From an uncultured archaeon (GTDB lineage Archaea; Thermoproteota; EX4484-205; JAAOZP01), in contig CALIBN010000029.1 in assembly GCA_938045545.1 (NCBI GenBank), positions 1-64,000 of the forward strand: a stretch of 64,000 nt of DNA, given 5' to 3'. The notes under the pieces were generated by a model. The model had not been told where the DNA came from. It did not search any database and saw nothing but the letters and a program-made list of their open reading frames with translations. Positions 15,948-64,000 of this stretch are shown here, piece by piece (within the stretch, counting starts at the first letter, position 1; each line of letters starts with the position of its first letter). The translations under genes and the position numbers were made by a program.

Positions 15948-15953
15948 GCTTAA

Positions 15954-18603: not shown

Positions 18604-18676
18604 CTTTTTTATAAATCTTTTTTACATTACTTTCATGGGAAGCATCAGGTCAGCTTAAAGGACCTGTAGAGCGGAA

Positions 18677-18730
18677 AGGCAAATTCTTAAATATCAACAT
18701 GTTAGGCAAATTCTTAAATATCGGCATGTT
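18677..18730 (+). repeat. 27-bp tandem duplication containing a BRE/TATA-like element in the divergent hyd/hox promoter
   Basis: AGGCAAATTCTTAAATATCAACATGTT followed by AGGCAAATTCTTAAATATCGGCATGTT (2 mismatches). Confidence 0.9.
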
Positions 18731-18750
18731 AGCCACTCCGCAGCTGCATA

Positions 18751-22139: not shown

Positions 22140-22148
22140 GAGGATTGG

Positions 22149-27527: not shown

Positions 27528-27599
27528 CTGTGCATCAGAAAAGTTTTTATCCTCTTCTTTTTTCTCCTTTGGAAAAATGAGCAGGGTGACCCATGGTCG

Positions 27600-30049: not shown

Positions 30050-30053
30050 AAGA

Positions 30054-31028: not shown

Positions 31029-32026
31029 ATTCTGAAGGGCGACTTCTTGAATTGGAGGATTTGCGGAAATGGTTTGAAATCAGACGAGGCTTTTTAAGTT
31101 CTAAGGTGAGTTATGTGAAGGCGGTAGACGGCGTGACTTTCACGTTGGACGAGGGTATGGCTGTGTCGCTTGTGGGTGAGAGTGGAAGCGGGAAGACGAC
31201 TCTGGGTAAGACTATCATAAGGCTTTACGAGCCTAACGGCGGGAGAATCATATTCCAAGATAGGGATGTCACCCATTTAAAGGCTAACGACTTAAAGTGG
31301 TACAGGAGGATGACGGGTCTTGTGCAACAGGATCCTTTCGGCGCCTTCGCGTCTCATTTCACAATATTCAGGTCCCTAGAGGAGCCTCTCCTCATCCATA
31401 ACACGGTTAAGTCGAAAGAAGAGAGGGCTGAAAAAGTATTCAAGGCGCTTGAAGAAGTTAGGCTTACGCCCGTGGAGGATTTCGCATACAAATATCCCCA
31501 TATGCTCAGCGGCGGTCAGCTTCAGAGGGTTGCTATCGCTAGAGCTATAATTCTCGAACCGCGCCTGCTAGTTGCCGACGAGCCTGTGTCGATGCTGGAT
31601 GCTTCTGTCCGTATAGAGATCCTGACCCTCTTAAGAAGGCTTCAGGAAAGACTCAGACTTGGCGTGATATACATAACGCATGACCTTGCGACAACAAGGT
31701 TCTTCTCAGAGTGGGCGTTGATAATGTATGCCGGACACGTTATGGAGAAGGCTTTCACTCAGGAAATCCTGAGGAATCCTTTACATCCTTATACGAGGGC
31801 TCTGCTCACAGCTACTCCTGAGCCAAACCCGGAGAATAGAAATAGGTTTAAACAGGTTCCGCCTGGGGAGCCTCCTGCGCTAATTGATCCTCCTAAGAGC
31901 TGCAGGTTCTCTCCACGCTGTCCACGCGCTTTCGACAAGTGTTTTAAGGAGGAGCCGCCAGAGTTCGAAGCAGCCTCAGGGCACTGGGTTAAATGCTGGC
32001 TTTACGAAAGGTCTGAAGGGAAATGA
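31025..32026 (+). CDS. Peptide ABC transporter ATPase (DppF-like)
   Basis: GESGSGKT, LSGGQLQR, DEPVSMLD, CRFSPRC. Confidence 0.92.
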   Translation: MNSEGRLLELEDLRKWFEIRRGFLSSKVSYVKAVDGVTFTLDEGMAVSLVGESGSGKTTLGKTIIRLYEPNGGRIIFQDRDVTHLKANDLKWYRRMTGLVQQDPFGAFASHFTIFRSLEEPLLIHNTVKSKEERAEKVFKALEEVRLTPVEDFAYKYPHMLSGGQLQRVAIARAIILEPRLLVADEPVSMLDASVRIEILTLLRRLQERLRLGVIYITHDLATTRFFSEWALIMYAGHVMEKAFTQEILRNPLHPYTRALLTATPEPNPENRNRFKQVPPGEPPALIDPPKSCRFSPRCPRAFDKCFKEEPPEFEAASGHWVKCWLYERSEGK

Positions 32027-41491: not shown

Positions 41492-44400
41492 CTATTTCTC
41501 CTTCCTGCTGTACGTCCACCGCTCTGAAACAGTGATCTTCAAAAGTTCGTCACGCAGCTCGTAAAGCATTGACTTCATCAACGCTTTATGCTCCACATAG
41601 GCATACGAGCTCCTCTCAATATTCTTAACAATCAACTCGACATTGTAGAAATCTCTGTCAGGAACATATTTAATCTCTACATCGTAATCCGCTATCCTTT
41701 CAGAAAGGCCAGAAACCGCCTTATAGCTTAAGTTCAATTTCACCCCATCCTCCCCTTTTCCATGCGAGTGGATTATAATGCCGTAGAGAGAGTAGGAATG
41801 GGATTGCGCCATATCTATGATGAGCGAGGAGAACTGCTCCAAATGCTCCTTCTTCAGCCGAATAGGGGTTGACGCTCTTTTAGAACCATCCTTCTCTGTT
41901 TTAATGTCAATTCCTCCTCTGACCAGCATTATTTTACTCGGGACTATTTTAAGAATGGCTTCTTTCGCGGGGAATGCTGAGCCGATGCCCGTAACCAGAA
42001 TGGCGATTATGAAAACCAGGAGCAGTGGTGTTAGGCTGTAGAGCTCCGTAAATATTTCCGGGCTGCTAGCGCCTATCGAATACGCCCAAGCATAGCCTAG
42101 AACATACCCTAAGCAGCCTCCCATCACCCCTATTATCAAGCCTTCGGTCAAAAATAAGTGGGTTATGAAGCTTGGAGATGCTCCCAAGCTGGACATTATT
42201 ACTGACTCCTTTCTCCGCTCATATATCGAGTTTAGCATCGCGTTTAGAATGATGAGAGAACCTATCAGTATCATCATGAGAACAGACTCCCAGCTGCCTA
42301 AAGCCATTAGGAGCGGTGCTCCAAGCTGAATGGTCTCAAGCTGTAAGCCTTTATTTATGGTTGCTGAATAAGAGGAGACAACGTCGATAGAGATGCCTGA
42401 TCCTCCGGTTGTTATGGCGCGGCTGAGCCAGTTTTTATGGGATGAGACTAGGGTCTTTAAATAGTTCTCTATTGCAACCAAGTTGGCAACAGGATAAGTC
42501 GCGATCACGGCTACGACTCGTTTAAAAGCAGGAAGGTTTCTCACAGCCTCAATATCTACCAATCCGACCACTGGGCTTGATATAATAAGCATCCTATTCC
42601 CCTCCGTCAAAAGGTTATCTTTTGTTAATCTGGATGGAGTTTGTACAGCATCCCAGTTAAGTGCTCCTATGAAGATCGGTCTGCTCCAAAGATAACTCTC
42701 CAACTCTTCTCCGCTTGGCATTTGTAGAGTAGATTTGTCGAATACTCCTGTGACATTCAAGTTTAAACCCATCACATTTAACTGGCTTGGAAAATACTGT
42801 TTTTGGAAAGACTCCTTGTCAATTAGAATACCGTTTTTAAAATCTCCTGAAAAGTTTAATCCCAGATGATTTTTCATAAAGGTGAGGTTTGCAAATATTA
42901 TTAAGCCTCCTAGCTCTTGGCTATCCGACTCCACCGGGATGGTGATGTTTAATCCTCCCGGCCCGGTTAGGTTTAACTGGCTCGAGGAAGATCCTGTTTG
43001 CAAAAACTCTAGTTCGCAGAAAGCTATGCAGATTGGCGTGTATTCCGCCATCCCAAGTTTCTCTGCGTAGAAAGCAGCCTCTTCAAGGCTCATTAAAAAC
43101 AGACCGTTGTACTTTTCTTCAAAAGTGCCTGCAGGAGTTGATATCACTACTCTTGCCAGCCAGGATTTTGAGAAAAAGATTGCTCCCTCTTCATCCCGGG
43201 TTTCTTGAATCGAGATGGCGAGTGGCACGACGGTTTTCAGAGTTATGGCTGGGACAGTTGCCATCGCTATTGTAGTAACGGTAAGTATTACTAGTGCGCC
43301 TCTAAGCCTTCTACTTTTAAGCATTCTAACCGCGGTTGATGCGGCTAGGCTGTAAATCGTGGCTGTTCCAGAGTACTTGAACATCAGCCGTGCTGTCAAA
43401 AGTAAAAGGATAATGCTTACGAGGGCTGAGGCGACTGGAAGCAGTAGGAATGGTATTCCGTGTGTGAAGTTCGATATGGACCAGAGATTTATCAATGGTT
43501 TCGGTTTCGTTGAGAAGAGTATTAGTCTTAAACCCGGATGGAATTCGAAAGCCAACAGCGAGAAGAGCGTGAAGAGAATGATAGTCAGTTTCCCGCTTCC
43601 GTTAAATATTAGGTGTGAAACAACTGCTCCCGCTATCAGAATAATTGTCAGCACGATAGGGACAATTAGCATTCCTGATGATAAGACTAGCATGCCGATA
43701 CTGCTGCCAGCTTCACAGACAAGATTAATAGCTGCTTCAAGCGGGAAAATATTTTTGTTCTCCAGTTCCTCAATATCGGTTGGCTGAATATCGTTTAAAT
43801 ATGACCTTGCCTGTTGAAGCTTTGCAGATATGTCTGGAGCATAAATCCTTGTTTCACTCAGAAACTCGCTGGCAGCTTTAATCAGGCTGTCGGTCGAGTT
43901 GAAAAGTGCTATGTAGATTTCTGGGCCGATTCTAAGGTTTTCCTCACGTAGGTTCAGGTCCATTTCAAACGGAAAGGTTAGCCGTGTCGGAGTGGATTCA
44001 AGTGTGTGAAGTTCAACCAAGTATCTGCCTGAAAGCTTTAAGCTATCCATGTTACTACGTGCTATTAGAAAGAGGCTTCCATTCCCAAAATAACTTATGT
44101 GAGTACCTGCATACTCGTCGAATACGATTCTAGCATTAAGCCTTTGAAAAGGCGACACATCAACAATATAAAGGTTCGCTAGGCCGGCCCTTAAAACTAG
44201 GTTGATGCTGATTATCCTACCCGTATTATTCACCCTGTACCATAATGTGGAATCGACATCGGGTTCCAGTCTATACGTGCTACTCAAGCCAAGCTGATCA
44301 ATATAGTAAATATAGTTCTTGCCATCAAACTTTACGTTCCAATTCCGAACCGTCCCATAGTAATCCGTCAAAACCGCTAACCTGTTTAACTGGAGACAAG

Positions 44401-44707
44401 AATCAGTATACAGCCGGATGGCATTAATCAGATAACGCTGATACTGCTGTATGCGTGAATCCAAACTTATTTCCTGTTGTTGAGTTACGCTGCCTGATTG
44501 ATTCGTGCTCCATGAAAAACGAAATAACCCTATCCACATTGTGAAATTAACAGGTTTTTGCGGGGCTTGGTCGAAAAACACCTCGGTGTTTAGAACAACC
44601 GTGTAATTCACGTAGCTTACTTGAGCTGAAAGAGGCCTTTCAGAAATAAATATAATGACAGCGAGTAAGAGACTTAGAAGAGTTGTTAGCAGTTGCCGTT
44701 TAACCAT
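41492..44707 (-). CDS. Large multi-pass membrane protein with FtsX/MacB-type permease domain
   Basis: Signal peptide, extracellular domain, TM bundle, RRLRGALVILTV, SIYERRKESVIMSSLGASP...EGLIIG FtsX motif. Confidence 0.8.
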   Translation of the reverse strand: MVKRQLLTTLLSLLLAVIIFISERPLSAQVSYVNYTVVLNTEVFFDQAPQKPVNFTMWIGLFRFSWSTNQSGSVTQQQEISLDSRIQQYQRYLINAIRLYTDSCLQLNRLAVLTDYYGTVRNWNVKFDGKNYIYYIDQLGLSSTYRLEPDVDSTLWYRVNNTGRIISINLVLRAGLANLYIVDVSPFQRLNARIVFDEYAGTHISYFGNGSLFLIARSNMDSLKLSGRYLVELHTLESTPTRLTFPFEMDLNLREENLRIGPEIYIALFNSTDSLIKAASEFLSETRIYAPDISAKLQQARSYLNDIQPTDIEELENKNIFPLEAAINLVCEAGSSIGMLVLSSGMLIVPIVLTIILIAGAVVSHLIFNGSGKLTIILFTLFSLLAFEFHPGLRLILFSTKPKPLINLWSISNFTHGIPFLLLPVASALVSIILLLLTARLMFKYSGTATIYSLAASTAVRMLKSRRLRGALVILTVTTIAMATVPAITLKTVVPLAISIQETRDEEGAIFFSKSWLARVVISTPAGTFEEKYNGLFLMSLEEAAFYAEKLGMAEYTPICIAFCELEFLQTGSSSSQLNLTGPGGLNITIPVESDSQELGGLIIFANLTFMKNHLGLNFSGDFKNGILIDKESFQKQYFPSQLNVMGLNLNVTGVFDKSTLQMPSGEELESYLWSRPIFIGALNWDAVQTPSRLTKDNLLTEGNRMLIISSPVVGLVDIEAVRNLPAFKRVVAVIATYPVANLVAIENYLKTLVSSHKNWLSRAITTGGSGISIDVVSSYSATINKGLQLETIQLGAPLLMALGSWESVLMMILIGSLIILNAMLNSIYERRKESVIMSSLGASPSFITHLFLTEGLIIGVMGGCLGYVLGYAWAYSIGASSPEIFTELYSLTPLLLVFIIAILVTGIGSAFPAKEAILKIVPSKIMLVRGGIDIKTEKDGSKRASTPIRLKKEHLEQFSSLIIDMAQSHSYSLYGIIIHSHGKGEDGVKLNLSYKAVSGLSERIADYDVEIKYVPDRDFYNVELIVKNIERSSYAYVEHKALMKSMLYELRDELLKITVSERWTYSRKEK

Positions 44708-51461: not shown

Positions 51462-52337
51462 TTAATGGCTTAATTCTTCATCGAGCTTTTCAATCATCTT
51501 CAGTATTTCAGTGTCAAGAGGCTTATGCTTTTTCCTTCGATATCTCCCAGCTACGTAAGGACCTGTTGAAGCAAAGGCCTTCTCGGCAAAATCGTCCCCC
51601 TCGCCCTCTGAGAAACGCCTCCACGAGTCCGGAAAATGAACGTAGGATTTCGGGTCTGTCCAGCTTATTTCGAATTCATCCAGTTTTTCAGGCGGGAAAC
51701 ATACGGCTACACGGTCTAGAGTTCTATGTAAGGATAAGGGGGAAGTGAAAACCCTCTGAATATCTATTCTGCTTTCAACGATAAGCCCATTCAGAGTCTC
51801 AAGCCTGTTGGTGATGAAGCTAGTTGCTGAGTACGCTATGTCGATCGGCTCTATTGTTCTTCTAATTTCGGTGCTGAAGCAGAAGGGATTGATTTGGACG
51901 TGAGCACCCCTGCCACTCCATTTGACAAATACAGATTTAGCAACTCCAAACTTGTCTAGCAGGCTTACTATTTCCTGAGCCTTCCTGATTACTTTCTTCC
52001 AGTCTCCATCTCTAGAGTCTATATCCCACACGGGAGAAGAGTAGAGGATGTTACTTCTGTCTAAAAGATCCTCTCTGACCCTAAGCCTAGAGTAAGTGTG
52101 AACCGTAGCGTAAAATGCTCTCGGCCTATACTTCTTATAACGATTGATCAATTCGATAACTTCCGATTCCGAACTTATAGTTAGCGGTTTATTTTTATCA
52201 TACCTGATCATTAAACGTGTACCATTCTCTCCGATTTCCTCGCAGTGAATGGCAACCCACTTGTTCTTACAATAATCAGCTATTTCCCTCTTGACCTCCG
52301 GCTTTCCATAATGCTCTAATGGAAGCCAAGGATTCAT
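51462..52337 (-). CDS. Archaeo-eukaryotic primase (AEP) superfamily protein, PriS/Prim-Pol-like
   Basis: Motif I WDID, motif II KWSGRGAH, motif III IDIQRVF..PLSLH. Confidence 0.8.
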   Translation of the reverse strand: MNPWLPLEHYGKPEVKREIADYCKNKWVAIHCEEIGENGTRLMIRYDKNKPLTISSESEVIELINRYKKYRPRAFYATVHTYSRLRVREDLLDRSNILYSSPVWDIDSRDGDWKKVIRKAQEIVSLLDKFGVAKSVFVKWSGRGAHVQINPFCFSTEIRRTIEPIDIAYSATSFITNRLETLNGLIVESRIDIQRVFTSPLSLHRTLDRVAVCFPPEKLDEFEISWTDPKSYVHFPDSWRRFSEGEGDDFAEKAFASTGPYVAGRYRRKKHKPLDTEILKMIEKLDEELSH

Positions 52338-53128
52338 AATTCCCTCTCCATCTCCTTTTTAGCGTCGATTATTTTCTTCATTACTTCAAACGGTAGCTTA
52401 TAGTCCTCAACTCTCCTCTCAACCCTGCCCAGAACCACCAGGCCTAAGCCGGGCTTAACGTCAATCTCATGAAGATACCTGCTGTGATCAGTCTGCCTCA
52501 TCTTCTCGATTACGATGAACCTTTTCAACTCTCCACCTCTTAAAAGCCTCCTAAACCTTATTATTCCGTCAGCTATGTGTTCAACACCGAAGCCAAAGCT
52601 TTCAGCAGTGGTTATAGCATACTGGCTTACGGCAAGTATCGTGAAGTTCCATTTAGAGAGAACCTTCTTAACATAATAGCTGTACCTTCTAGCCATTGCA
52701 GGCTTGTCCAGCCAGAATGCTGAGAGACTGTCAATGACGATCCTAGCCCGACCGTATCCAAGCTCCTTCTTAGCCTCTATTATCTTGGATACGAGCGCCT
52801 CCATGTCTAGGCTCTGCAGGCTCCACTTGTCCGTCCTGCCCATTAAAGCGTCGATTATTATCAGTCTACCCTCTTCAATCCTCTTCTGGAAATCCATTTT
52901 AAACTGTGAGGCCTGTCTAACTATAGACTCCCTGCTCTCCTCAGTCGTGACGTAAATACACTTATCTCCCTCTTCAACACCCTTGTTGATGAAATGTATC
53001 GAGAGTATTGTTTTTCCACATCCCGGTTCCCCGGTGACGGCGACGAAGAAGCCCTCCGGTATCCCGCCTTGAAGCAGAGAGTCCAGCCCCCCAACCCCGG
53101 TGCTGAGCCTCTTCACCTCCAGCGTCAT
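52334..53128 (-). CDS. Single-domain KaiC/RecA-family ATPase (PAE1156-like)
   Basis: RLSTG..GLD.LL.GGIP, GEPGCGKT, TTEE, IVIDS, EHIADGII, IEKMR. Confidence 0.9.
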   Translation of the reverse strand: MTLEVKRLSTGVGGLDSLLQGGIPEGFFVAVTGEPGCGKTILSIHFINKGVEEGDKCIYVTTEESRESIVRQASQFKMDFQKRIEEGRLIIIDALMGRTDKWSLQSLDMEALVSKIIEAKKELGYGRARIVIDSLSAFWLDKPAMARRYSYYVKKVLSKWNFTILAVSQYAITTAESFGFGVEHIADGIIRFRRLLRGGELKRFIVIEKMRQTDHSRYLHEIDVKPGLGLVVLGRVERRVEDYKLPFEVMKKIIDAKKEMEREL

Positions 53129-53199
53129 TATGTATTGTCTTGCGGAGGAGGCATATGAACTTATCACCCTGCTGTCGACTACTTGCTTTTAAATTATGG

Positions 53200-55917
53200 T
53201 TAACCGGTTTCAGATCGAGCTATCTCGTACCAGATGGTCTGGAAATCAGGCCCGATCGAAAAAACTTTATACTGCCCCTCGTGAGAAACCTGGACCTGCT
53301 TAACCCTGTTACCTATACTGTCTAAAACCCATACTTCCATCTTCCTGTCTGTTCTAATCCTTAGCGTTGCCCTAACCCCCTCCACCAGTGTTGGAGCTGA
53401 ACCCCAGTTTACGCCACAAGTTACGGGCTCCATGAGTGGTTTCAAGTCAGCCAAATCGTTCAGTCTCCACGTTAACAATGCTACGTTTCCCTCATACGTG
53501 CGGAGCCTCATCCCAGTATTCGTAACGTAGCCGGCAGCTATGAGCAGAAGCCTGTTCCAAGACTCAAAGCTTTCTCCCTCCAGCACTGTGACAGTTATAA
53601 TGCTCCAGCCTTCTAGAAGCGTTTCCCCCGAGTCTATGACTAGCGCCCCGAAGTCGAGGCTTCTACCACCGGAGAACCCTATGGCCGCAATGCTTCTCGA
53701 AGTGTTAACCGTTATGATTCCCCTCCCAGCATAAGAAGTGTCCCAAGCGACTTCCCCCGTGTCGGAGCGGTGAACAGGCCCAGAAACATTCAAATCGACC
53801 CCGGGTAATTTTTCACCGTCGAGCTTGATGGCTGTTCTATGTGTTAGAGAGGCCAACGGGTTTAAGCCCATGTGGCCAGCATCCGGCAGCGCCCAAGCGT
53901 AGACTCTACCGCTCGCTATCAGGTTTACCTCATCCTGCCTGTCCAATCTCATGCAAACAAGCCGGTCGGCCGGCTTAACGTCTCCTCTCAAGAATATCAT
54001 GTGCGCAGCTATCAGGGTCGCCATTTTAACAGGGTGCTGGTCAATGTCGAAAAACCCCCTTATCCTCCTGGAGTCCCAGTTGCCCCGGCTCCCATAGTCG
54101 AACAGAAATATTCCATCCCAGTCTTGCAGTGCAGCGTACGCGGCTAGCGTTACGACTGTTTCAGAATCATACATGTTCGGAGCAGGATGATTGTATTCGG
54201 TAACGAAGTGAGGCTTGTTCCCAACCCTTTTAACAGCTAAGCCTACTATGGTGCTTCTCTCCGGATTGTTAACCATCGGCTCGTTAACCACGTACCAATT
54301 GCTAGGGTCCCAAGGGGTCCTTGGGAAAGAGGGGTGGTTCCAGTAGGCATGCGTGTCTACGACGTCGAGCTTAGACATTATGTTCGGCGTGCTGCACCCG
54401 ACTATGGTGCCTATCACGAGGGCTCTCACGCCTAGCTCATCTCTAATGAATCTCCTCATCTCCGTGAAAAACCCTTCCTCCATGCTGTACAGGAATTCGA
54501 CCCAGTCTCTTCTGGCTACGCTCGTCCTCAAGCCGTATTCGGCGAGCGCCAGTATCCTAACGGTTGCTTTTTCAACGCTCTCATCCCCCATCGCGCCGTA
54601 TCCGCTGAAAAGCCTCATGGAGAAGCAGGAGAACATGTAGGCTGCTATGTTCCTCCCAAGCCCCGAGACATCTAGCCTAGCATTGTCCTCTGATTCCGAC
54701 GCAACCAGGGCAACCTCGTACTCCCTCCACTCTGTAGTCAGCGGTACTCCAACCCTTTGCGAAACCAGTCTCCAGGGCTCGTGCGCCTGAACAAGGCCTA
54801 TGCTTACACTGGCCGTTTTATCAGCCCTAGCCTTAAACCTTACAAGATAGTTTTCACCCTCCCTTATTCTTAAACCCGGCTGGTTGAACTGCACATGCCA
54901 GCTTTCAGACCCGAGCCTCGTAACCCTGATTTCCAGGTTCCTTCCCCCACCCTCTTCAACCACTCTCGCCGATGCTTGCGCACCGTTGTGAACCTCAACC
55001 ACCCAGCCCTCCAAACCTTGTTCGAAGCAACCGTTCCTAAGAACTTCAGCCTGAGCCCAGGGGCTTGTCTCGCCGCCCCATGCTTTTCTAAACTCCTCGT
55101 CAGACACATACTTAGAACCCAAATAGGCGTTCCATTTCTCCCGAAGCCTGTTTCTAAAGACTTGTGGAAGCCTGTCAACCACGCCGCCGAGCCAAGAATG
55201 AATAAGCCCCTGCTCGTTCACTATTTCAACGAAGGCGACCGCAGGGTCCTCAGCGTAAGTCATTCCAGTATAGGGGTTCAAATGGGTTAAGAGCTGCCTA
55301 GCATACTCTTTCTCAAGCTCTTTAACCTCATCTGTGAAAAACCCGAGTACCTGCTGGTCCTTCCAGTCCACCGTCTCAACTTCTCTAGGTAGACCATCCG
55401 CGTAAGTAAACCTTCTTGATACGAGCAGGTTTAGGTCAACGTATATACCGTTCTCCTTAAGCTTTGAAATAAAGTAGTCGAGCCTGTCGAGCGCATCCTT
55501 GTTAAGGCGGCGCGTACCCCCCGTGGTCTTGTCGAAAATGTTGAAAGCCTCCCAGCTCGCATCCATGTGGTGGAAACGCGCCACGTTGACCCCGAATTTA
55601 GCTAGCCTGCTAGCTATCTTCTCAGCCTCATCCTTCTCTGGGAAGCATGCTCCTCCGCAAATGTTGACCCCTAGAAACTTTACTCTTTCCCCGTTAACAT
55701 AAAGATGACCGTCCTCTCCAACATACACGTGTCCAAGACTGCCCGCCGGCTTGTGGAGCCTACTGCTCATGCTTATCGCAGTCTGCTCACTGTCGTCCCA
55801 GGGGAGATAGAAGGGGAACACTCGTTTCTCAAGCGTTACGGGTTTAAACAGGTTTTGGAGTAAGGCTAGGGACATTATCGAGCCTACTGCCATCAGGATT
55901 AAAACTGCTTTCTTCAT
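53200..55917 (-). CDS. Secreted clan GH-A glycoside hydrolase with internal CBM4/9-like module (GH5/GH148-like)
   Basis: Signal peptide, GVNVARFHHMD, EIVNE (acid/base), NGCFE.G...W and W.VQF.Q CBM motifs, DTHAYW, VTEY (nucleophile). Confidence 0.8.
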   Translation of the reverse strand: MKKAVLILMAVGSIMSLALLQNLFKPVTLEKRVFPFYLPWDDSEQTAISMSSRLHKPAGSLGHVYVGEDGHLYVNGERVKFLGVNICGGACFPEKDEAEKIASRLAKFGVNVARFHHMDASWEAFNIFDKTTGGTRRLNKDALDRLDYFISKLKENGIYVDLNLLVSRRFTYADGLPREVETVDWKDQQVLGFFTDEVKELEKEYARQLLTHLNPYTGMTYAEDPAVAFVEIVNEQGLIHSWLGGVVDRLPQVFRNRLREKWNAYLGSKYVSDEEFRKAWGGETSPWAQAEVLRNGCFEQGLEGWVVEVHNGAQASARVVEEGGGRNLEIRVTRLGSESWHVQFNQPGLRIREGENYLVRFKARADKTASVSIGLVQAHEPWRLVSQRVGVPLTTEWREYEVALVASESEDNARLDVSGLGRNIAAYMFSCFSMRLFSGYGAMGDESVEKATVRILALAEYGLRTSVARRDWVEFLYSMEEGFFTEMRRFIRDELGVRALVIGTIVGCSTPNIMSKLDVVDTHAYWNHPSFPRTPWDPSNWYVVNEPMVNNPERSTIVGLAVKRVGNKPHFVTEYNHPAPNMYDSETVVTLAAYAALQDWDGIFLFDYGSRGNWDSRRIRGFFDIDQHPVKMATLIAAHMIFLRGDVKPADRLVCMRLDRQDEVNLIASGRVYAWALPDAGHMGLNPLASLTHRTAIKLDGEKLPGVDLNVSGPVHRSDTGEVAWDTSYAGRGIITVNTSRSIAAIGFSGGRSLDFGALVIDSGETLLEGWSIITVTVLEGESFESWNRLLLIAAGYVTNTGMRLRTYEGNVALLTWRLNDLADLKPLMEPVTCGVNWGSAPTLVEGVRATLRIRTDRKMEVWVLDSIGNRVKQVQVSHEGQYKVFSIGPDFQTIWYEIARSETG

Positions 55918-56041: not shown

Positions 56042-57955
56042 TCACCAGGGCCATATCCATGAGGCTCTTGAAACCAGGGTGATGGTGGTTCCTACCGCTA
56101 CGACAATGCCTATGCCTGCTGCAAACCCTGCTAGGACTATGCCTCTAATGGAGAACCATTTTTCAGGTCCAAGTATACGCGTCATCAAGTACTTGCTTAC
56201 CAAGGACATTATGAACACCATCATGGTGTACGGTTGAATGCTGTACATTCCACCAACTAGTCCAACAGGGTTAAATGGTATCCCCAGCTTGTTCAAAGGC
56301 AGTGAGACGAGGCTGATCCCCACGGCTATGCCAACGCCGAGAAGTATCTGATCCGCTTTTATAAGTATCTGGCGAGTTGCGAACAATGAGTCGCTTATAG
56401 CATAGTTTGGCCATATTCCGTACACGTATGGGAATAAGTAGGAGGGTATTGGGGCTATTCTCCAGAAGAAATCAGTAAATATCAGGCCGAATGTTGTTAC
56501 TAGTATGAAGGATATTATGACTGCCTTAAAATAGTCCATGGGTCTTGTCCCCGTCGCATAAGCCACCTTAGTGGAGTTTGCGAAGTATGGTGTGGAGAAG
56601 CCCGCTATGGCGGGTGTGAAAATCCATCCAGCATAGCCGTTGTAGGGGCTGAAGTATATGGCTGCCTTCCACATGTTGTATATGAAGTCCGGTGAAAATG
56701 TTAATCCGAGTTCACCGTAAATCCTGGCGCCGACGGATGCTAAAACGAAGCTGAACCCTACTGAGACCAGTATTGGGAGCCAGAAGGGAACATCTGGAAG
56801 GAGAATCTCGTAGAGAAACGCGCTAAGAATCGTGGAACTGAAGAACGTGACAAGCAGTATCTTGGGCGAAGGATATCCAGGCCCACCCTTCACCCTGCTT
56901 AGTTTCGGAAGTGTTTTAAACGCTGCCACGATTTTCCTGCTGGTCGATGCTAAAAGGAAGACGGCTAGGCCGAAGGATAAACCCATGAAAAAGGAAAGCC
57001 AGAGTCTTAAGCCTGCTCTCTGAAGTATCAGGAATATTCCCATTCCTGGGGAATATTCTTCAACCCACTGGGGGGAGAAGCTCTTGAAAGTTGTGAGGGT
57101 AAGAGTGTTTCCAAAGATCCATGTGATTACTGATCCAACTAGCATAGCGAAGGTTAATGAGGGAGGTAGGATCATACCGTAGAGGAAGCTCAACGGGTCT
57201 GTAGCTATGCCTATGACTGCCCCAGGTAGGAAGAACTGCGTGTAGGGCGTTAAGTCAACCCAAGGATACGGTATTAAACGTGCCTGGGGGCCGATAAGCA
57301 TGGGTGTCAGGTAAAGGATTAAACCGTATATGGCTCCCATTGTCAAAGACAAGATGAAGTAAAGCAGGTCCTGAGGCCTCCTGTCATGCAGAGTGTTCAC
57401 CATGGCTGTGTCGATCTGTGCAAATGGGAACGGCAGAGGCTCCTCCACCACGTAAAGATAGGAGAAAAGTATGCCTATGGATAGTTCTGCTGCCAGGCCT
57501 AGGATTGAGAAAGCAAGGTTTACGCCTAGGGCGAAAAACCAGTCTGGATGCAGCAGGGTTCTCAACTGGTGGACGGGTGACGTGGCTGGTGGGGACATCC
57601 ATGTGGGAACGTATTCCCTAAGCGGAATGTTGAAGAGCGTGAACTCTAGGCTTAAAGGGTTCGTAACATAATAGGACCTGAATACGAGCCAGTAGTACAT
57701 CGGCATGGCTCCACCTATTCCCCCTACAATAGAATAAATGATGAAAAGCTCCTGTCTCGAAAGCCTCCTGCCGTAAATCTGTGTTAAGGCCGTGAAAAGT
57801 ATTGCTGTCACGTAAGTGGCGGCAGTACTTACACCAGACCCTACTGCAAACCATAGATATATTGAGGATGGCAGGAAGATTAATGCGGCCATTATCATTG
57901 CTAAGATGCTTCTCCAAGTCAATCCCGGTGAAAATTCCTGCGAGGATTGCGTCAG
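56042..57955 (-). CDS. OPT-superfamily-like multi-pass transporter (probable CTG start at 57955)
   Basis: GLTWRS, LSRQEL.IIY, EEPLPFP.A, PYPWVD, WRIAPIPS..FP; more than 12 hydrophobic segments. Confidence 0.75.
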   Translation of the reverse strand: MTQSSQEFSPGLTWRSILAMIMAALIFLPSSIYLWFAVGSGVSTAATYVTAILFTALTQIYGRRLSRQELFIIYSIVGGIGGAMPMYYWLVFRSYYVTNPLSLEFTLFNIPLREYVPTWMSPPATSPVHQLRTLLHPDWFFALGVNLAFSILGLAAELSIGILFSYLYVVEEPLPFPFAQIDTAMVNTLHDRRPQDLLYFILSLTMGAIYGLILYLTPMLIGPQARLIPYPWVDLTPYTQFFLPGAVIGIATDPLSFLYGMILPPSLTFAMLVGSVITWIFGNTLTLTTFKSFSPQWVEEYSPGMGIFLILQRAGLRLWLSFFMGLSFGLAVFLLASTSRKIVAAFKTLPKLSRVKGGPGYPSPKILLVTFFSSTILSAFLYEILLPDVPFWLPILVSVGFSFVLASVGARIYGELGLTFSPDFIYNMWKAAIYFSPYNGYAGWIFTPAIAGFSTPYFANSTKVAYATGTRPMDYFKAVIISFILVTTFGLIFTDFFWRIAPIPSYLFPYVYGIWPNYAISDSLFATRQILIKADQILLGVGIAVGISLVSLPLNKLGIPFNPVGLVGGMYSIQPYTMMVFIMSLVSKYLMTRILGPEKWFSIRGIVLAGFAAGIGIVVAVGTTITLVSRASWIWPW

Positions 57956-58033
57956 GGGCCCTTCACCTCGTTTTTACCTGGGGGTTCTTATATAAAAATT
58001 TTTAAATCCCAGCTAAAAAACTTATAAGCCGAC

Positions 58034-61000
58034 ATGCTCCCCATTCTCCTAAAAGGCATGACTGTCAGAATTAGAATCATGTTAATATCGCTTCTCCTCC
58101 TATCTGTTTTCCTCACGCCAGTCGCACAGGTTCTCGCAACCCCTGGGCAGCTTTATGCGTCATTTTCAAAACCTGATCTTAAACCTGGTTTAAGCACTTC
58201 TGTTTCAGCCCAAGCGGAAAAACTTTTCCCGTTAGACACGGCTTGGATGAACCGGTTTATAACAGAAGTGTCTTCCTACGGTTCTAGGATGACCGGTTAC
58301 CCGGGCTACTACAAGACGCTCGAGCATCTTTACAACTATCTGAACGAGGTGGGAATAGCAAGCCAGAAACACAAGTATAAGGTGCTGGTGCCCTACGACG
58401 AGGAGACTTATGTCGAGGCCCTAGAGCCGTTTAAAGCCAGGTTTAAAGCTTACGCGCTCTATCCTAACGGTATCAACCCTTGTCCAACTTCCTCCAACGG
58501 GATTGTTGGAAGCCTGATTTATGCTGGGGGAGGCGACTTGCAGGAGTTAGATGGGAAGAACGTCGAGGGAAGCATAGTGGCCATGGAGTTTAATTCTCGG
58601 GATAACTGGCTTAAGGCGGTTAACCTCGGAGCCGAGGCAATAATATTCATAGAGCCGGAGCAAACGACCTATCAGGAGTGCTACGCCAAGTTCTTAGACA
58701 CTCCCATGGGTCTTACAAGGGTTTACGTTAAGAAGCAGGATTGGAATGTTTTGAAAGCCGCCACCCGTGTAAAAATCGTTTCAAGAATAGCGTGGAGGGA
58801 GGTTGAGGCTGAGAACATAGTTGGATTTATAAATGGGACAGCCATACCTAACGAGGTCGTCGTACTTTCCGCGCATTTCGACTCATGGTCTGTTGTCCCA
58901 GGCTTGTCGTCAAGTAAGACTGAGCTGTTACCCTTGGCTCTTCTGCTTCAGTATGCCCTTCACCTCAAGGCCAACCCGCCTAGATATTCAGTATGGATAG
59001 TGCTTTACTCGGGACACTGGCAGGCACTTAGCGGCTCGAGAGAGTTTGTCGAGGACTACTTTTTCAGGGAGGATGTGAGCAGTGGCAAGATAACGATCCT
59101 CGGAAACATAAACTTCGACCTTATGGCGAGTGACTCCGACGGTCTGCAGCTTCTCCACGCCAGCCAGTACTCAACCTACGGCGCTACCCCTATACATGGC
59201 GGTGGCTTCCCGCTTAGGCTCTCCTGGTTTAGCACAACGATAGGGAGCATGATTGACACGCCTGAAGTCAGGCTTTTCGCAAGGAGGATACCGAACATTA
59301 ACGTTTCAGCCCCCTCCAGCGCATTCATCTCCTCGCTCGTAAGCATTTTCTTCCAGTATAATACTTTTTCAGGCACCGAGCCCATCCCGTTTATGCTGGA
59401 CTCCGAGCCTGCTTCGATCGCAGGCATACCGGCGTTCTCCATAACGACCAGGCGTTCAAACAGGATCTACGTGGGCTCCCCCATAGATGATTCGAGCTAT
59501 GCTAATGTAGACGTTATAGACCCATACCTCCAACTTGCCCTCTACATTGTTGACGGCCTTCTCCGAATGGAGTGGAATATCGATAGGGCTTCGATCAAGC
59601 CGACAAGGTTTCTCCTTTCAAATACGAGAGGATACCCGGGCTACGCTGCTCTTCAAGGCAGGGTTGTTGTCTACAACTATAGTAAAGGATGGTACGACGG
59701 GGTTCCTGATGCTCTTGTTGAAGTAAGGCTGGTTACTTCAACCTATAAGCTTAACAGGATAGTGATGAAAAGCGGCGAGGATGGGTCTTTCACAGTCCAC
59801 GGCGTTCCTATTGCCGGTGCCGCCGGGGGAGGAGGCACCGTAGTAATATTCTCAAGATGGATCGCCAGGGGGTGGGTGCTTAACGATGAGGGCATCATCA
59901 CGATGGCTACTGACCTGGGGCAGTTCGGAATGATGAACTTCCCGCTTGAAATAACCGTCTTACACGCTTATGAGAATGTTACCGTGGTGATTGCTAAAGC
60001 CGTGTCTGTGGAAGTGCTTGATTTCGAGATCCCAACCATCATAATGACGCCGAGCATAATAGATCCTAGGGCTGGCGCGTTCGAAATGTGGAGGAGCCCG
60101 CCTCAACCTGTTGCCGTGTTCTCATTCGAGATGCTTACTAAGAGTCCGCCGATAAGCTACGGCTACTATTCTAACGGCTGGGAGCCTGTTTCAATAGTAT
60201 GGGTTCAGCCGGGGATAAGGTTCGTCGTCGTAAGCCCAACTGGGATACTTTTAACTAATTCTTCTCTTGAAAACACGGAGGGAAGCGGGTTCTACGTGGA
60301 ATATGGGAAGAGGGAGAGAGTGTGTTTCTCAACTTTCAGGACTGCTAAAGACCTCTACTATGTTTCATACGGCCGTTATCTTGAGCTGGTTAACAGAAAC
60401 ATGGGTAGCCCGAGCGCCGATGAAACCCTGAATAAGGCTCGGAGATACATAGAGGAGGTTGAGAAACTTTTAAACGAGAGGAAGTATAGCGGCATGTATG
60501 CTTACGCTCTTCTAGCCAGAGCCTACGCAATTAGGGCTTACTCCGTGGAAGTCATGCCCCTGATAAACGATTCTGCGAAGTCTCTTCTCTACATGTTTAT
60601 CATAGTCATATTCGGATCTTTCTTCTTGGAGAAACTCATCATCCAGGCTCGCGGCTCAAGGCGTATTGTTGCTCTCGCCGTTCTTGCAGCAATATTCCTA
60701 GCATTGTTCAGCATTCTGCATCCAGCATTCGGATTGATGAGCAACATATCTCTAGGCATGATGGGCTCTCTAATCCTGATCGTTATCATAATAGTGTTCA
60801 TAATAATACTTTCTATAAGCGAGGAGGTTAGGAAAGGCATTGAGAAGAGGGTTCTAGGTGTCCACAGGGCTGAAGTAAGCAGGCTTGACACGGCGATGAT
60901 ATCTTTCTCGCTGGGGAGCGAACACATGCGTCGCAGGCCTTTCCGCGCCATACTTGTTTTCCTAACACTGATCACAATGGTTGTAGCCATGACATCCTTC

Positions 61001-62611
61001 ACCTCTCTCATGCCCGGGAGGATAACGGTTCCGGTCACAAGGTATGGTTACGAGTGTAATTCCTACAGGGATGAGATCCTGGTAAAACAGGGGAGAGGCG
61101 TCCCCCCGAACATTCTTTCAGACAAGGTTCTAGATATTGCGAAAATATTCGCCGGAGACAAATACTATGTTTTCCCGAGAGTATGGATTTACGGTCCGGT
61201 GGATAGGGCCGCGTGGACCACCTCCTTCCGAGTGTGGAGCGCAACAAACACTTCCAGAGTGCCTGCAATAATGGGAATGACGGTGGAGGAGTTCAACCGG
61301 ATTGTGAGGGGCACATGCATCGTGAGGGGTGGGCTGCTTTCCGACGATGCTGACCAGGCAGTAATATCGAGGTCGCTGGCAACTAACTTGAGCGTAACGA
61401 TAGGGGACACTATTTACGTTTCAGGCATCAGGTTCACGGTGACCGGAATAATTGATTCAAACGAGGTTGATTTCCTACAGGAGGCTGACGGATACAATAT
61501 TTTCCCGGCGAACCCGAGTTTCTTCCCATCTATAAGCAGGGACATGGCTGTCTCTGCTCAAGCCGGCTCGTCTCCCCCAAACCTCGGCGTTTCAACAACA
61601 ATAATAATACCCTACAGGAGGGCGCTGATGATAGGGGGATACATTGCTTCAATAGCCATAGTGCCTAAGGGAAACATGTCTTTCAACGAGATATTCAGCC
61701 TAGCTAAGGAGCTGGCCTACTCCCTAGACCTTTCAATATATGTTTCCCACCAGGGAAAGCCTTATCTGCTTTCAACCTTCACCACTGTGCTTCTGGGAGG
61801 GTGGGAAATAATATGGATGATCATCATCCTGGGGGCGTTGAACATATTTACCACGGTGCTGGGAAGCCTCAGGGAGCGCGTTAGAGAAGTGCACGTGTTC
61901 AGCATCGTCGGCTTATCTCCAATGGGTGTAACCGTGTTCTTCATGACCGAGGTCATTGTCTACGCTATAATAAGCGCCTTAGTAGGCTATATCGCAGGAT
62001 ATTTCATGACGAGGATCTTCATGCTTACCGGAATACTGCCTTCTGAACACGTTTTCAACTTCGCTTCAGCATTCGCGATCCTGGGGACCCTGGTGACGAT
62101 GGCTTCAGCCTTAGCGGCGGCTGCATACCCGTCTTACATGGCTTCGAAAGTGGCTACGCCCTCGCTCGAGAGGAGGTGGAAGTTTAAGACTAAGCCTAAG
62201 GGAGACGAGTGGGATATTCCTCTGCTCGTAAGCGTTTCAACAGTCGATGAGGGGAGGGGGCTCTTAGCGTATTTACACGAGTATTTCGCGGGCGCAGGGG
62301 CTGTTAAAGAGGGTGTTCACATGGTTAAGGAGCTGCAACCTCCAAACTACGAGAGTCTATCGTTGAGCCTAACAGTCAGCCTCTCGCCGTTTGAAGTAGG
62401 TGTTTCCCAGAGGGTTGATATTGCCGCAAGGCTGAACGAGGAGGTGAAAAGATACGATGTTATACTCCACTTGGAGAGGCTTACGGGCCCGCAGAGCACA
62501 TGGGTGACTTCAAACTACAGGTTTGTAAACGAGTTGAGGAAACAACTGATAATGTGGGGATCATTCTCAGCCACTGAGAAAGCAAGCTACATATCTATGG
62601 CAAAAGCTTAG
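58034..62611 (+). CDS. Giant membrane protein: PA/M28 peptidase-like domain, extracellular domains, and FtsX/MacB permease domain
   Basis: Signal peptide, SRMTGYPG, PA-like LIYAG.G...G.IV, SAHFDS, NFD, MRRRPFRA.L, ERVREV..FS.VGLSP...E FtsX motif. Confidence 0.82.
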   Translation: MLPILLKGMTVRIRIMLISLLLLSVFLTPVAQVLATPGQLYASFSKPDLKPGLSTSVSAQAEKLFPLDTAWMNRFITEVSSYGSRMTGYPGYYKTLEHLYNYLNEVGIASQKHKYKVLVPYDEETYVEALEPFKARFKAYALYPNGINPCPTSSNGIVGSLIYAGGGDLQELDGKNVEGSIVAMEFNSRDNWLKAVNLGAEAIIFIEPEQTTYQECYAKFLDTPMGLTRVYVKKQDWNVLKAATRVKIVSRIAWREVEAENIVGFINGTAIPNEVVVLSAHFDSWSVVPGLSSSKTELLPLALLLQYALHLKANPPRYSVWIVLYSGHWQALSGSREFVEDYFFREDVSSGKITILGNINFDLMASDSDGLQLLHASQYSTYGATPIHGGGFPLRLSWFSTTIGSMIDTPEVRLFARRIPNINVSAPSSAFISSLVSIFFQYNTFSGTEPIPFMLDSEPASIAGIPAFSITTRRSNRIYVGSPIDDSSYANVDVIDPYLQLALYIVDGLLRMEWNIDRASIKPTRFLLSNTRGYPGYAALQGRVVVYNYSKGWYDGVPDALVEVRLVTSTYKLNRIVMKSGEDGSFTVHGVPIAGAAGGGGTVVIFSRWIARGWVLNDEGIITMATDLGQFGMMNFPLEITVLHAYENVTVVIAKAVSVEVLDFEIPTIIMTPSIIDPRAGAFEMWRSPPQPVAVFSFEMLTKSPPISYGYYSNGWEPVSIVWVQPGIRFVVVSPTGILLTNSSLENTEGSGFYVEYGKRERVCFSTFRTAKDLYYVSYGRYLELVNRNMGSPSADETLNKARRYIEEVEKLLNERKYSGMYAYALLARAYAIRAYSVEVMPLINDSAKSLLYMFIIVIFGSFFLEKLIIQARGSRRIVALAVLAAIFLALFSILHPAFGLMSNISLGMMGSLILIVIIIVFIIILSISEEVRKGIEKRVLGVHRAEVSRLDTAMISFSLGSEHMRRRPFRAILVFLTLITMVVAMTSFTSLMPGRITVPVTRYGYECNSYRDEILVKQGRGVPPNILSDKVLDIAKIFAGDKYYVFPRVWIYGPVDRAAWTTSFRVWSATNTSRVPAIMGMTVEEFNRIVRGTCIVRGGLLSDDADQAVISRSLATNLSVTIGDTIYVSGIRFTVTGIIDSNEVDFLQEADGYNIFPANPSFFPSISRDMAVSAQAGSSPPNLGVSTTIIIPYRRALMIGGYIASIAIVPKGNMSFNEIFSLAKELAYSLDLSIYVSHQGKPYLLSTFTTVLLGGWEIIWMIIILGALNIFTTVLGSLRERVREVHVFSIVGLSPMGVTVFFMTEVIVYAIISALVGYIAGYFMTRIFMLTGILPSEHVFNFASAFAILGTLVTMASALAAAAYPSYMASKVATPSLERRWKFKTKPKGDEWDIPLLVSVSTVDEGRGLLAYLHEYFAGAGAVKEGVHMVKELQPPNYESLSLSLTVSLSPFEVGVSQRVDIAARLNEEVKRYDVILHLERLTGPQSTWVTSNYRFVNELRKQLIMWGSFSATEKASYISMAKA

Positions 62612-63284
62612 TGTAAGTATACTCCTCTATTTTCTTAAGCAGGTTGACAACTGTGAGGAACGCTCTCCGGATAACGCCTCCAGACTGAACACCATACAGC
62701 ATGTGCATCCTTACGATCCACGATATGGATTGAGGCGCCTCCATATGTTTTTTAACCATGCTGCCAATTATCGGTCCTCTGTCTGAAGTCATCAGATATG
62801 TTTCAAAAAGTTCAACCGGTATAAGGGATGGGAAGATTTCTATCAAGTCTCCTCCCCCCTGTTTAACCAATTCCTCAACCTCCCTGCTCCTAACGACCTG
62901 CATTAGGCCTTCTTCCTCGAGCATGGTTACCCCGGATAGTGATGAGAGTCCACTCCACCTGCTGGCCTTCAGGCTTCTTCTTAAAACCCCTTTCAACTCC
63001 AGTTCCACGGATTCTGAAAGCATTCTTTTCAAAAGCTGACTTTTATCCCGGTTTTTAAGCCTGTCTTCAGGGATTTCAAGTACGCCGACCATTTCGAACT
63101 TCCTGTCTAAGCTGAACTGCATCCTCCTTACTAGGATAATAAGCCTTATTTGCGGGTTTTCAAGCGGCTTGGCAACTAGGTTTCCCCTTCCAGTCTCCTC
63201 GAAGGAGATTTCGAACTGTTCAAGCGCCTTCTTCACGCTCTGAACCCAGGACATTACCTCTACCAGTTTATTTGATGCACTCAT
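62595..63284 (-). CDS. Hypothetical protein
   Basis: 229-aa ORF with host-like composition, convergent overlap with the upstream gene; no recognised motif. Confidence 0.65.
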   Translation of the reverse strand: MSASNKLVEVMSWVQSVKKALEQFEISFEETGRGNLVAKPLENPQIRLIILVRRMQFSLDRKFEMVGVLEIPEDRLKNRDKSQLLKRMLSESVELELKGVLRRSLKASRWSGLSSLSGVTMLEEEGLMQVVRSREVEELVKQGGGDLIEIFPSLIPVELFETYLMTSDRGPIIGSMVKKHMEAPQSISWIVRMHMLYGVQSGGVIRRAFLTVVNLLKKIEEYTYTKLLP

Positions 63285-63438
63285 AAATCTAACTTAAAGA
63301 GAAAATGTTTCGCGTAAACAGGTGGGTTTATGAACCCATTTTAATTGGTTTAACGCGTGTGGAAACTCTAAAGGACACATTTACATCCGTAAAGTTTAAA
63401 TTTTGCAAATGTATAGCATAAACGAAGGTGAAAACGTT

Positions 63439-64000
63439 ATGGCTACGGAAGTAGAGCTTAAAACAGGTTTAACAGCAAGATCACTCGCCGTCTCCATCCC
63501 CCTCGCAATATTCTTCGCCTACATGTCGGTTGTCGTAGGCCTATATACCGACAAGACATCCACATTCGGTACTTTCATCCTACCTATGGTGTATTTCGTC
63601 GTAGTTTTCGAACTCCTTGGAAGAGCCAACCCTAAGCTGAGGCTGACACCTCAGGAATTAGTCTTTCTGTTCTCAGTCATCTCTTTCCTAGGGATGCACT
63701 CATACCTGACGATGCATGCTGCAGCCCACAACAATCCTTTAAGCATGCCCGTGTACGGTGCTCTCAGCGACTACGAGGCTTTCTCGATAGACGCTTTAAG
63801 GGATTACTGGAGCAGGGCTGTTCCCTCTGTTGTAATTGCTCCTGAGCCGATACGCTTCGAGATAGCTACGATAATGATGAACGGTAAAGCACCAGGCCAA
63901 GCTGTTCCATGGGGCTACATAACTAACGCCCTAATATACTGGGGCCTCGTCTACATGTTCTACGCCTTCATAAGCGTGTTCGTAACATTCGTCTTCGGCA
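63439..64000 (+). CDS. OPT/DUF6785-like multi-pass membrane protein (truncated by window end)
   Basis: Manual translation MATEVELKTGLTARSLAV...LRLTPQELVFLF...VPWG; shares GLT.RS and L..QEL with the 56042 protein; AGGTGA SD upstream. Confidence 0.75.
   Translation, partial: MATEVELKTGLTARSLAVSIPLAIFFAYMSVVVGLYTDKTSTFGTFILPMVYFVVVFELLGRANPKLRLTPQELVFLFSVISFLGMHSYLTMHAAAHNNPLSMPVYGALSDYEAFSIDALRDYWSRAVPSVVIAPEPIRFEIATIMMNGKAPGQAVPWGYITNALIYWGLVYMFYAFISVFVTFVFG

Follow-up and report, generated by a model that had tools for sequence, protein, structure and literature searches.

Genes of the Locus

The right-hand end of the window, meaning here the whole 64,000 nt stretch at positions 1 to 64,000 of the forward strand of contig CALIBN010000029.1 from an uncultured archaeon of the Thermoproteota, carries three genes for membrane proteins: one for a 1525 aa protein (the giant) in which a peptidase-like ectodomain precedes an FtsX-type permease, and two for OPT-like carriers (T-A and T-B). 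This trio is the subject of the present analysis, which follows up a preliminary description made from the letters of the DNA and its open reading frames (ORFs). The features that form the trio are the following.

58034-62611, plus strand: gene of the giant subunit, a 1525 aa ORF (Pfam, hydropathy, Protein Data Bank (PDB) profile)
56042-57922, minus strand: gene of carrier T-A, 626 aa, OPT/YSL fold, TTG start
63439-63999, plus strand: 5' part (187 codons) of the gene of carrier T-B, DUF6785 and DUF6784, running beyond the end of the window
57923-58033: divergent intergenic region between T-A and the giant, from a reading of the sequence

The window genes are real: a genome scan finds orthologues with 91-97% identity in the same order in six other assemblies; the closest genomic match is a Candidatus Brockarchaeota metagenome-assembled genome (locus L006), whose giant is 97% identical. 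The divergent arrangement of T-A and the giant given in the preliminary description stands, but its gap of ~80 bp does not; the gap is 111 bp (57923-58033) when counted to the TTG start of T-A, and would shrink to 78 bp should translation begin at CTG 57955 and take in a conserved in-frame extension of the N-terminus. At ~57987-57997 the sequence shows a TATA-like palindrome rich in A/T, and the intergenic region probably holds the promoters of both genes. Relatives of T-A start ~13 residues earlier and share a conserved E-F-x-x-G motif there; in the window the codons for this motif lie ahead of the TTG start and in frame with it (57923-57976, minus strand). Between the motif and the stop codon at 57976-57974 there is no ATG, GTG, or TTG, leaving CTG 57955 as the sole option, and the true start codon of T-A is uncertain.

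Conservation of the Trio

The genome scan with a profile of the giant yielded 145 relatives (a separate homologue search returned 40), of which 80 loci were kept; these and the window make up 81 sources with 912 ORFs, which were clustered by BLASTP. Neighborhood statistics come from simple ORF calling, single-linkage clustering, and one annotated representative per cluster. The largest cluster is the T family, with 129 members in 67 sources, which splits cleanly into 63 T-A proteins (median 640 aa) and 66 T-B proteins (median 680.5 aa). One T-A and one T-B gene lie within three genes of 47 of the 66 giants of at least 1350 aa; T-A alone is found beside 8, T-B alone beside 1, and neither beside 10, five of which are at contig ends. 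When the count is limited to the 30 giants flanked by 4.5 kb or more on each side, 25 stand with both carriers, 1 with T-A alone, and 4 with no carrier. The preliminary description had named co-occurrence of the M28-FtsX giant with OPT/DUF6785 genes as a point to survey, and these counts bear it out.

Gene order within the trio is variable (G, giant; arrowheads, direction of transcription) and includes T-A< G> x< T-B>, T-B< T-A< G>, T-B> G> T-A>, T-A< G> T-B>, T-B> T-A> G>, and G> T-A> T-B>, as well as tandem double modules; retention of the three genes through so many orders and orientations argues for selection rather than for one inherited operon. Pairwise identities across 41 trios are strongly correlated for giant versus T-A and for giant versus T-B (r = 0.94 in both, Mantel p = 0.001), a test that does not part co-evolution from shared species history. 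The hosts are Brockarchaeota, Bathyarchaeia, Thermofilaceae, and other lineages, and more than one copy is present in several assemblies among the loci kept (80 of 145), with six giants in JAWCEH01, five loci in QMRZ01, and two in the assembly nearest the window. Giant, T-A, and T-B are near certain to constitute one functional module; gene order and sequence comparison show a membrane module conserved in Thermoproteota, at least the giant of which also occurs in Planctomycetota.

Two giants each are present in L045, L077, and L079; in L045 and L079 the modules stand in tandem with T genes between them, while the second giant of L077 is cut by the locus end and has other genes between. These loci suggest that the module was duplicated as a unit.

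It is very improbable that the three genes are neighbors only, an orphan FtsX protein beside two independent secondary carriers. Such a reading would fit five loci that have a giant but no T genes, as well as a second large FtsX protein of the window (41492-44707) that has no adjoining T genes; however, 25 of 30 long-flank giants keep the trio across lineages and rearrangements, with co-divergence. The five loci are L047, L053, L068, and L075, all with long flanks, and L056, which is alike but has a short downstream flank. Their giants form a clade of 1556-1592 aa and are followed by a 339 aa protein with 3-4 transmembrane (TM) helices and then by a 296 aa soluble protein, both of no known family; GFO/IDH/MocA and aldo-keto reductase genes lie upstream. 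The two genes that follow these giants were considered as equivalents of T-B and ruled out, as the hhalign probability is <1%.

On the complete chromosome CP117708.1 (1,429,880 bp; L072, 152883-177202), the trio is arranged as T-B> T-A> giant>; the host is a cultured polysaccharide-fermenting Thermoproteota strain (PMC12542729). This trio is followed by a 583 aa protein of no assigned family and an SBP_bac_5 protein, and two small ATP-binding cassette (ABC) ATPases with FtsX fragments lie 5-6 genes upstream of it.

The Carriers T-A and T-B

T-A of the window has no Pfam match at E<=10 and no NCBIfam match at E<=1. Its relatives in the protein database are all archaeal, and the named ones are "hypothetical" save for one "OPT/YSL family transporter"; the OPT model is matched by 3 of 20 relatives, at best with 1.9e-11. 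The AlphaFold2 (AF2) model of T-A (pLDDT 86.9, pTM 0.85) superposes over the whole chain on barley YS1 (Foldseek: 7wst_A, 3.9e-12; 7wsr_A, 1.2e-11; TM-score 0.67-0.72) with 664 aligned columns at 14-15% identity; nothing but YS1 is matched at E<=1e-3, and the next match has a TM-score of 0.15.

The start of T-B at ATG 63439, within an ORF open from 63403, agrees with a full-length orthologue of 699 aa (L006:12026-14125) that matches DUF6785 at 4.2e-19. All 20 T-B relatives match DUF6785 (best 2.2e-41), 15 of the 20 match DUF6784, and 3 match OPT; the 199 aa window fragment itself gives no Pfam match (E<=10) and no NCBIfam match (E<=1). A BLASTP comparison of T-A from the window with the T-B fragment is non-significant (E 0.026); the two family profiles align with an hhalign probability of 99.9% (E 9e-35, 607 columns), which marks T-A and T-B clearly as distant paralogues along their whole length. 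Sequence-profile searches of the PDB returned nothing at E<=1 for either carrier, and the T-B profile search returned close archaeal relatives only, which is uninformative on bacteria. The first transporter had been called OPT-like and a second paralogue had been placed from 63439 in the preliminary description. The matches of T-A relatives to OPT and of the T-A model to YS1 alone support the former, and the orthologue start and profile alignment support the latter; the labels are right because of family-level and structural evidence only.

In PMC9691689, YS1 is described as a proton-coupled, elevator-type importer; it is a homodimer in which a C-terminal strand and the scaffold domains join the subunits. 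The T-A sequence closes with a conserved W-x-W-P-W motif; that this motif forms a dimerization strand is speculation. A complex prediction with T-A and two fragments of the giant (845-1000 and 1245-1379) scored 0.01 against a mark of 0.32, and was run without controls.

Architecture of the Giant

A 1525 aa fusion of a PA/M28-like domain with an FtsX permease, as first described, agrees with the ORF at 58034-62611 (plus strand), with Pfam, with the family profile, and with Foldseek. Pfam places Peptidase_M28 at residues 261-373 (1.4e-7), MacB_PCD at 1056-1180 (7e-8), and FtsX at 1259-1372 (6.4e-10). Against the PDB, a family profile of 19 members matches the PA-domain aminopeptidase 2ek8 (5e-21, profile positions 39-349), LolC, MacB, the transferrin receptor (2e-9), and nicalin (1.6e-5). 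A layout was drawn up from hydropathy and an AF2 model of residues 840-1525 (mean pLDDT 84.3), in which PCD stands for the periplasmic core domain.

Residues ~15-33: predicted N-terminal anchor, from hydropathy
Residues ~39-850: predicted extracellular PA/M28-like and further ectodomain, ~800 residues
58148-59593, plus strand, residues ~39-520: PA/M28-like ectodomain (2ek8 alignment, columns of 64 giants)
60572-60817, plus strand, residues ~847-928: three extra TM helices (hydropathy; model helices H2-31, H36-56, H66-102)
60947-62149, plus strand, residues ~972-1372: MacB/FtsX type VII ABC permease module (TM1, PCD, TM2-4)
62159-62608, plus strand, residues 1376-1525: family-specific cytoplasmic C-terminal domain (alignment, predicted secondary structure)

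The extra TM cluster precedes the MacB-type module and contains conserved polar residues (E866, P897). The C-terminal domain directly follows TM4 and is predicted to have a beta-alpha-beta4-alpha2 order with invariant W, R, Q, and W; it is specific to the family of the giant and matches no known domain family. At 50% clustering, a profile of this domain matches 1521 representatives with E<=1e-3, of which 1319 reach E<=1e-10; among the best 150 of the 1521, the match always ends <=~100 residues from the C-terminus, in proteins of ~1450-1560 aa or shorter. A 1668 aa protein from Phycisphaeraceae has the same PA/M28-like N-terminus, TM cluster, FtsX module, and C-terminal domain, and the giant is on this account assigned to Planctomycetota as well. 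T-A of the window has no entry in the Atlas, an Atlas search with a homologue of the giant returned only more clusters of identical architecture, and a single-sequence PDB search with segment 1240-1379 returned nothing.

The M28-like Domain

Canonical M28 enzymes bind co-catalytic zinc through His, a bridging Asp, Glu, Asp/Glu, and His, and use a catalytic Glu. The Pfam match of the giant (PF04389, 31.8 bits against a cut-off of 21.3) covers profile positions 1-104 of 193 only. Slots 281-328 were assigned from the 2ek8 alignment, which ends near profile position 349, together with the known M28 ligands, and the columns were counted over 64 giants. H281 is present in 57/64, D283 in 64/64, and E/D297 in 63/64; the zinc-Glu slot is H328 in 57/64, the catalytic-Glu slot is G327 in 64/64, D456 is found in 60/64, and E458, which we tentatively take to be the slot of the last His ligand, in 62/64. 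The bridging-Asp slot is variable (D22, T14, E11, others), and the residue after it is an acid in 63/64. The giant therefore departs from the set of zinc ligands plus catalytic Glu by which an M28 metallopeptidase is recognized; it is unlikely to be a canonical peptidase because Gly occupies the catalytic-Glu slot throughout. The name "M28 peptidase" is apt as a family resemblance and is not tenable as a peptidase label. The domain is best considered a non-canonical aminopeptidase relative with a conserved pocket, and the invariant Gly fits a binding rather than a cleaving domain.

These residues also bear on whether the trio could be a peptide or glycopeptide system, in which the M28-like domain would bind or trim peptides and the carriers would import oligopeptides like fungal and plant OPTs. 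M28 and PA domains are typical of aminopeptidases, OPT is an oligopeptide transporter family, and no more than two genes away there is an M20 peptidase gene in L017 and L050 and an SBP_bac_5 gene in L072; nevertheless such a system is unlikely in light of the Gly in the catalytic slot, the variable bridging-Asp slot, and close neighbors that are mostly glycoside hydrolases and sugar-catabolic enzymes (11 hydrolases versus 2 peptidases among 61). YS1, the OPT-family member with a solved structure, carries a metal chelate and not a peptide (PMC9691689), so that the OPT fold leaves the substrate unfixed.

The Permease Module and the Question of an ATPase

Foldseek matches the model of residues 840-1525 to MacB (5gko_A, 2.6e-12), LolC/E (~1e-10), HrtB, YbbP, YtrF, and BceB, with 53 matches in all at E<=1e-3. 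The FtsX four-helix domain is recognized by PF02687 at 1259-1372 (39.6 bits against 25.5), and the core domain between TM1 and TM2 by PF12704 at 1056-1180 (33.4 bits against 27); compared with isolated periplasmic domains of MacB, LolE, and YknZ, the core has target-normalized TM-scores of 0.52-0.61. Profile comparison and structure prediction of each protein had been put forward as checks in the preliminary description, and upon running them the giant is identified as a MacB-type permease and T-A as a YS1 fold. Between TM2 and TM3 lies the coupling-helix motif E1281-R1282-x-R-E, which aligns with "ERtkEIG" of MacB; the form E-R-x-R/K-E/D is conserved, with E1281 in 59/64 giants and R1282 in 64/64. 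The coupling helix may be an ATPase docking site.

No ABC ATPase is fused to the giant (Pfam), and no partner ATPase gene of the kind that accompanies type VII permeases travels alongside it in the 81 sources. These contain 17 ABC ATPase-like ORFs, of which the one within two genes of a giant is an exporter-type ABC_membrane plus ABC_tran fusion and the other 16 are at least five genes off. The absence of an adjacent ABC ATPase noted earlier is confirmed for the window, where the nearest ones are Opp-type (30054-32026) and the ATPase at 52334-53167 is KaiC-like. The latter was considered as a missing motor and rejected as a core component, being non-ABC and present in only 7 of 81 sources.

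An ATPase encoded elsewhere is possible, and with it the same trio could be ATP-driven: a MacB-type ABC ATPase would dock on the coupling helix, and hydrolysis would drive mechanotransmission by the ectodomain, pushing or releasing substrate to the carriers, which is the model of the preliminary description. The retained coupling-helix motif and the type VII ABC permease fold of the giant speak for such a system. In L021 and L072, small ABC ATPase genes adjoin those of ordinary FtsX permeases at a distance of 5-7 genes, making the sharing of an ATPase conceivable. However, one would expect a module that survives so many rearrangements intact to have retained its motor as well, the ABC genes of the 81 sources lie far from the giants save for the exporter-type fusion, and every giant has a cytoplasmic C-terminal domain after TM4 that could contact the coupling helix; an ATP-driven trio is considered doubtful, though it is the main rival of the working model set out below.

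Gene Neighborhood and Substrate Hints

Beside the trio, genes for GFO/IDH/MocA oxidoreductases (17 ORFs, 14 loci) and for URO-D-like proteins (14 ORFs, 12 loci) recur, as do those for GH3, aldo-keto reductase, a GH42-like protein, sugar kinases, and the CBM4_9 protein. A further 61 non-redundant ORFs of 200 aa or more lie no more than two genes from a core gene, and 11 of these have glycoside hydrolase domains (GH4, GH5, GH10 x2, GH31, GH53, GH78 x2, GH106, GH127, GHL10), compared with 6 of 103 non-redundant control ORFs at least five genes away in the same loci (odds ratio 3.6, p = 0.017); one further close neighbor is a beta-helix protein. The link to glycans drawn in the preliminary description is supported by this 3.6-fold enrichment, at moderate strength only.

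URO-D-like genes of the MtaA type stand beside trios in L026, L010, L036-L038, L042, and others, and MttB-like, cobalamin-independent methionine synthase-like, and MTHFR-like genes are also found near trios; some of the substrates might be methoxylated compounds or methylated sugars.

An export or envelope machine would read the same loci in the opposite direction, with the giant extracting a surface molecule and the OPT-fold pair flipping or exporting its precursor; a lipid-anchored glycoprotein, an S-layer component, or an exopolysaccharide could be the molecule in question. The characterized type VII systems matched by the giant (MacB, LolCDE, HrtBA, BceAB, YbbAP) export, extract, or sense and do not import, and L062 has a gene for a GT2 glycosyltransferase at most two genes away. 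Biosynthetic genes are otherwise rare among the neighbors, and many diverged copies beside different glycoside hydrolases fit substrate-specific uptake better. The OPT-family members with known transport are importers, including YS1 (PMC9691689), and export has only a slim chance of being the function.

Proposed Mechanism

The trio is probably a nutrient-uptake machine of many heat-loving, sugar-degrading archaea. In the working model, which is tentatively preferred and given somewhat less than an even chance, the giant acts in surface capture and T-A/T-B form a proton-coupled OPT-fold heterodimer that imports glycan fragments. The anciently diverged T-A and T-B would most likely form a heterodimer comparable to the YS1 homodimer, giving a proton-coupled, elevator-type translocator. 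The giant would stand beside the carriers with its ~800-residue ectodomain and MacB-type extracellular core domain; the ectodomain would bind polysaccharide fragments freed by neighboring glycosidases and hand them over to T-A/T-B, with conformational coupling through the MacB-type stalk. We infer the physical complex, the heterodimer, the substrate class, the transport direction, and the energy source from the findings above, and the statement in the preliminary description that the giant "feeds" the carriers is an inference of the same kind. In that interpretation, the three-gene co-occurrence and a moderate glycan link hold up, whereas the CBM glycosidase as a core part and the M28 peptidase label are to be dropped.

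Several observations weigh against uptake of glycan fragments by this mechanism. The known MacB-type systems are exporters or extractors and not importers, and the conserved coupling helix of MacB type suggests a partner ATPase, for which the model has no need. The giants of the five loci described above indicate that a giant can exist with no T genes nearby. The conserved H/D/E/H/D/E pocket could serve metal binding and other catalysis. The enrichment of glycoside hydrolases, though real, is moderate, and hydrolases also abound among the distant genes, the hosts being sugar degraders overall; M20 peptidase, SBP_bac_5, and URO-D or MttB-like methyltransferase genes among the neighbors mean that the substrate could be non-sugar.

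A bolder form of the working model would make the trio a new class of uptake machine, in which a MacB-type mechanotransmission protein has lost its own ATPase and is built on a heterodimer of elevator-type OPT-fold carriers, with proton-driven carrier movements coupled to those of the large capture domain at the surface. Having multiplied and diversified beside different glycosidases, the module would be an archaeal counterpart of bacterial polysaccharide utilization loci, maybe shared with Planctomycetota; taken jointly, these proposals are doubtful.

Other Genes of the Window

Three further genes adjoin the trio.

62595-63284, minus strand: gene of a 229 aa soluble protein, convergent with that of the giant, the 3' end of which it overlaps by 17 nt
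53200-55917, minus strand: gene of the CBM4_9 protein, 905 aa, directly downstream of T-A on the same strand
52334-53167, minus strand: gene of a KaiC-like ATPase, 277 aa, downstream of the CBM gene

The 229 aa protein gives no match in Pfam (E<=10), NCBIfam (E<=1), or PDB profiles; it holds the same position in 15 sources, the window included, and may be either a clade-specific accessory gene or a bystander. From its N-terminus, the CBM4_9 protein has a hydrophobic segment, a stretch weakly resembling GH5 mannanase at residues 141-238 (3pz9, 1.5e-6), and CBM_4_9 at 291-417 (1.8e-13). It had been described as a secreted glycosidase; its presence in only 9 of 81 sources makes it a secreted or anchored, clade-specific neighbor outside the module core. 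The KaiC-like gene is overlapped by the gene of a 291 aa protein of no assigned family (together 51462-53167, minus strand), both following the CBM gene on the strand of T-A; they are conserved in 7 and 6 sources, respectively, window included, and a clade-specific operon is possible.

The second large FtsX protein (41492-44707, minus strand; 1071 aa) is homologous to the C-terminal half of the giant (hhalign 99.6%, E 3.5e-24, residues 616-1069), the homology possibly taking in the C-terminal domain; it has no PA/M28 domain and no adjoining T genes or ABC ATPase. FtsX proteins of similar size (~1000 aa) adjoin trios in L026, L074, and L078. A conventional uptake system, a complete Opp/Dpp-type ABC importer, is encoded at 25065-32026 (plus strand); it has two permeases, two ATPases that carry oligo_HPY domains, and an SBP_bac_5 protein that is unusually large at 820 aa. 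At 14661-23585 lie two divergent [NiFe]-hydrogenase-type clusters with NuoF/NuoE-like and ferredoxin-type subunits.

Literature and Significance

Literature searches found no description of the trio system, in line with the statement in the preliminary description that no experimental description was known; the literature searched has no mention of DUF6785 or DUF6784, no combination of FtsX with Peptidase_M28, and no work on Bathyarchaeia, FtsX, and polysaccharide. The transport passage of PMC12542729, the genome paper on the cultured carrier of the trio, credits sugar import only to "ABC transporters and different porters", and neither "FtsX" nor "M28" occurs in that paper; its supplementary tables might list the genes under generic names. 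Sugar uptake in Thermoproteota (Bathyarchaeia, Brockarchaeota, Thermofilaceae) is mostly assigned to generic ABC transporters or unnamed porters.

The module is abundant, as seen from the 1521 representatives matched by the C-terminal domain profile, and is found in multiple copies among genes of carbohydrate-active enzymes; if it is an uptake system, the reading of carbon flow from these genomes changes. It would also be the first known case in which a MacB-type permease acts together with secondary carriers, perhaps with no use of ATP, and DUF6785/DUF6784 would gain a function. The cultured polysaccharide-fermenting archaeon that carries the trio (L072) makes the question directly testable.

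Comparison with Known Systems

The giant resembles MacB, LolCDE, and FtsEX over residues ~972-1372 in its four-TM FtsX topology, its extracellular core, and its coupling-helix motif. It differs from them in having no co-travelling ATPase gene, in the addition of ~970 N-terminal residues and a unique 150 aa cytoplasmic C-terminal domain, and in its linkage with two OPT-fold proteins (25 of 30 long-flank giants); no MacB-type system is known to pair with OPT-fold proteins.

The known OPT/YSL transporters (Transporter Classification (TC) 2.A.67) are described as working without accessory subunits, whereas T-A and T-B are a diverged paralogue pair linked to a giant accessory protein. T-A superposes on YS1 and some T-A and T-B proteins reach the Pfam OPT model (PF03169); in contrast, T-A and YS1 share 14-15% identity, T-A of the window misses the OPT model, and T-B is filed under DUF6785/DUF6784. 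A T-A/T-B pair would be consistent with the YS1 dimer described in PMC9691689.

A likeness to TRAP/TTT and SusC/SusD systems may be drawn in logic only, as an extracellular capture element would serve a carrier that is not ATP-driven; as an analogy, many diverged copies, each beside different glycoside hydrolases, also recall SusC/SusD loci. No relation to DctP/DctQM, TctABC, or SusC/D was seen in the sequence, fold, or Pfam matches of the trio. The giant shares the lack of a catalytic Glu with the transferrin receptor and nicalin, which are inactive M28/PA proteins; unlike these, it keeps the possible ligands H281, D283, E/D297, H328, D456, and E458, and may have a metal or ligand site of another kind. 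The parts of the trio belong to known superfamilies, and it is their combination, the ATPase-less state of the giant, and the pairing of the carriers that have no description in the literature searched.

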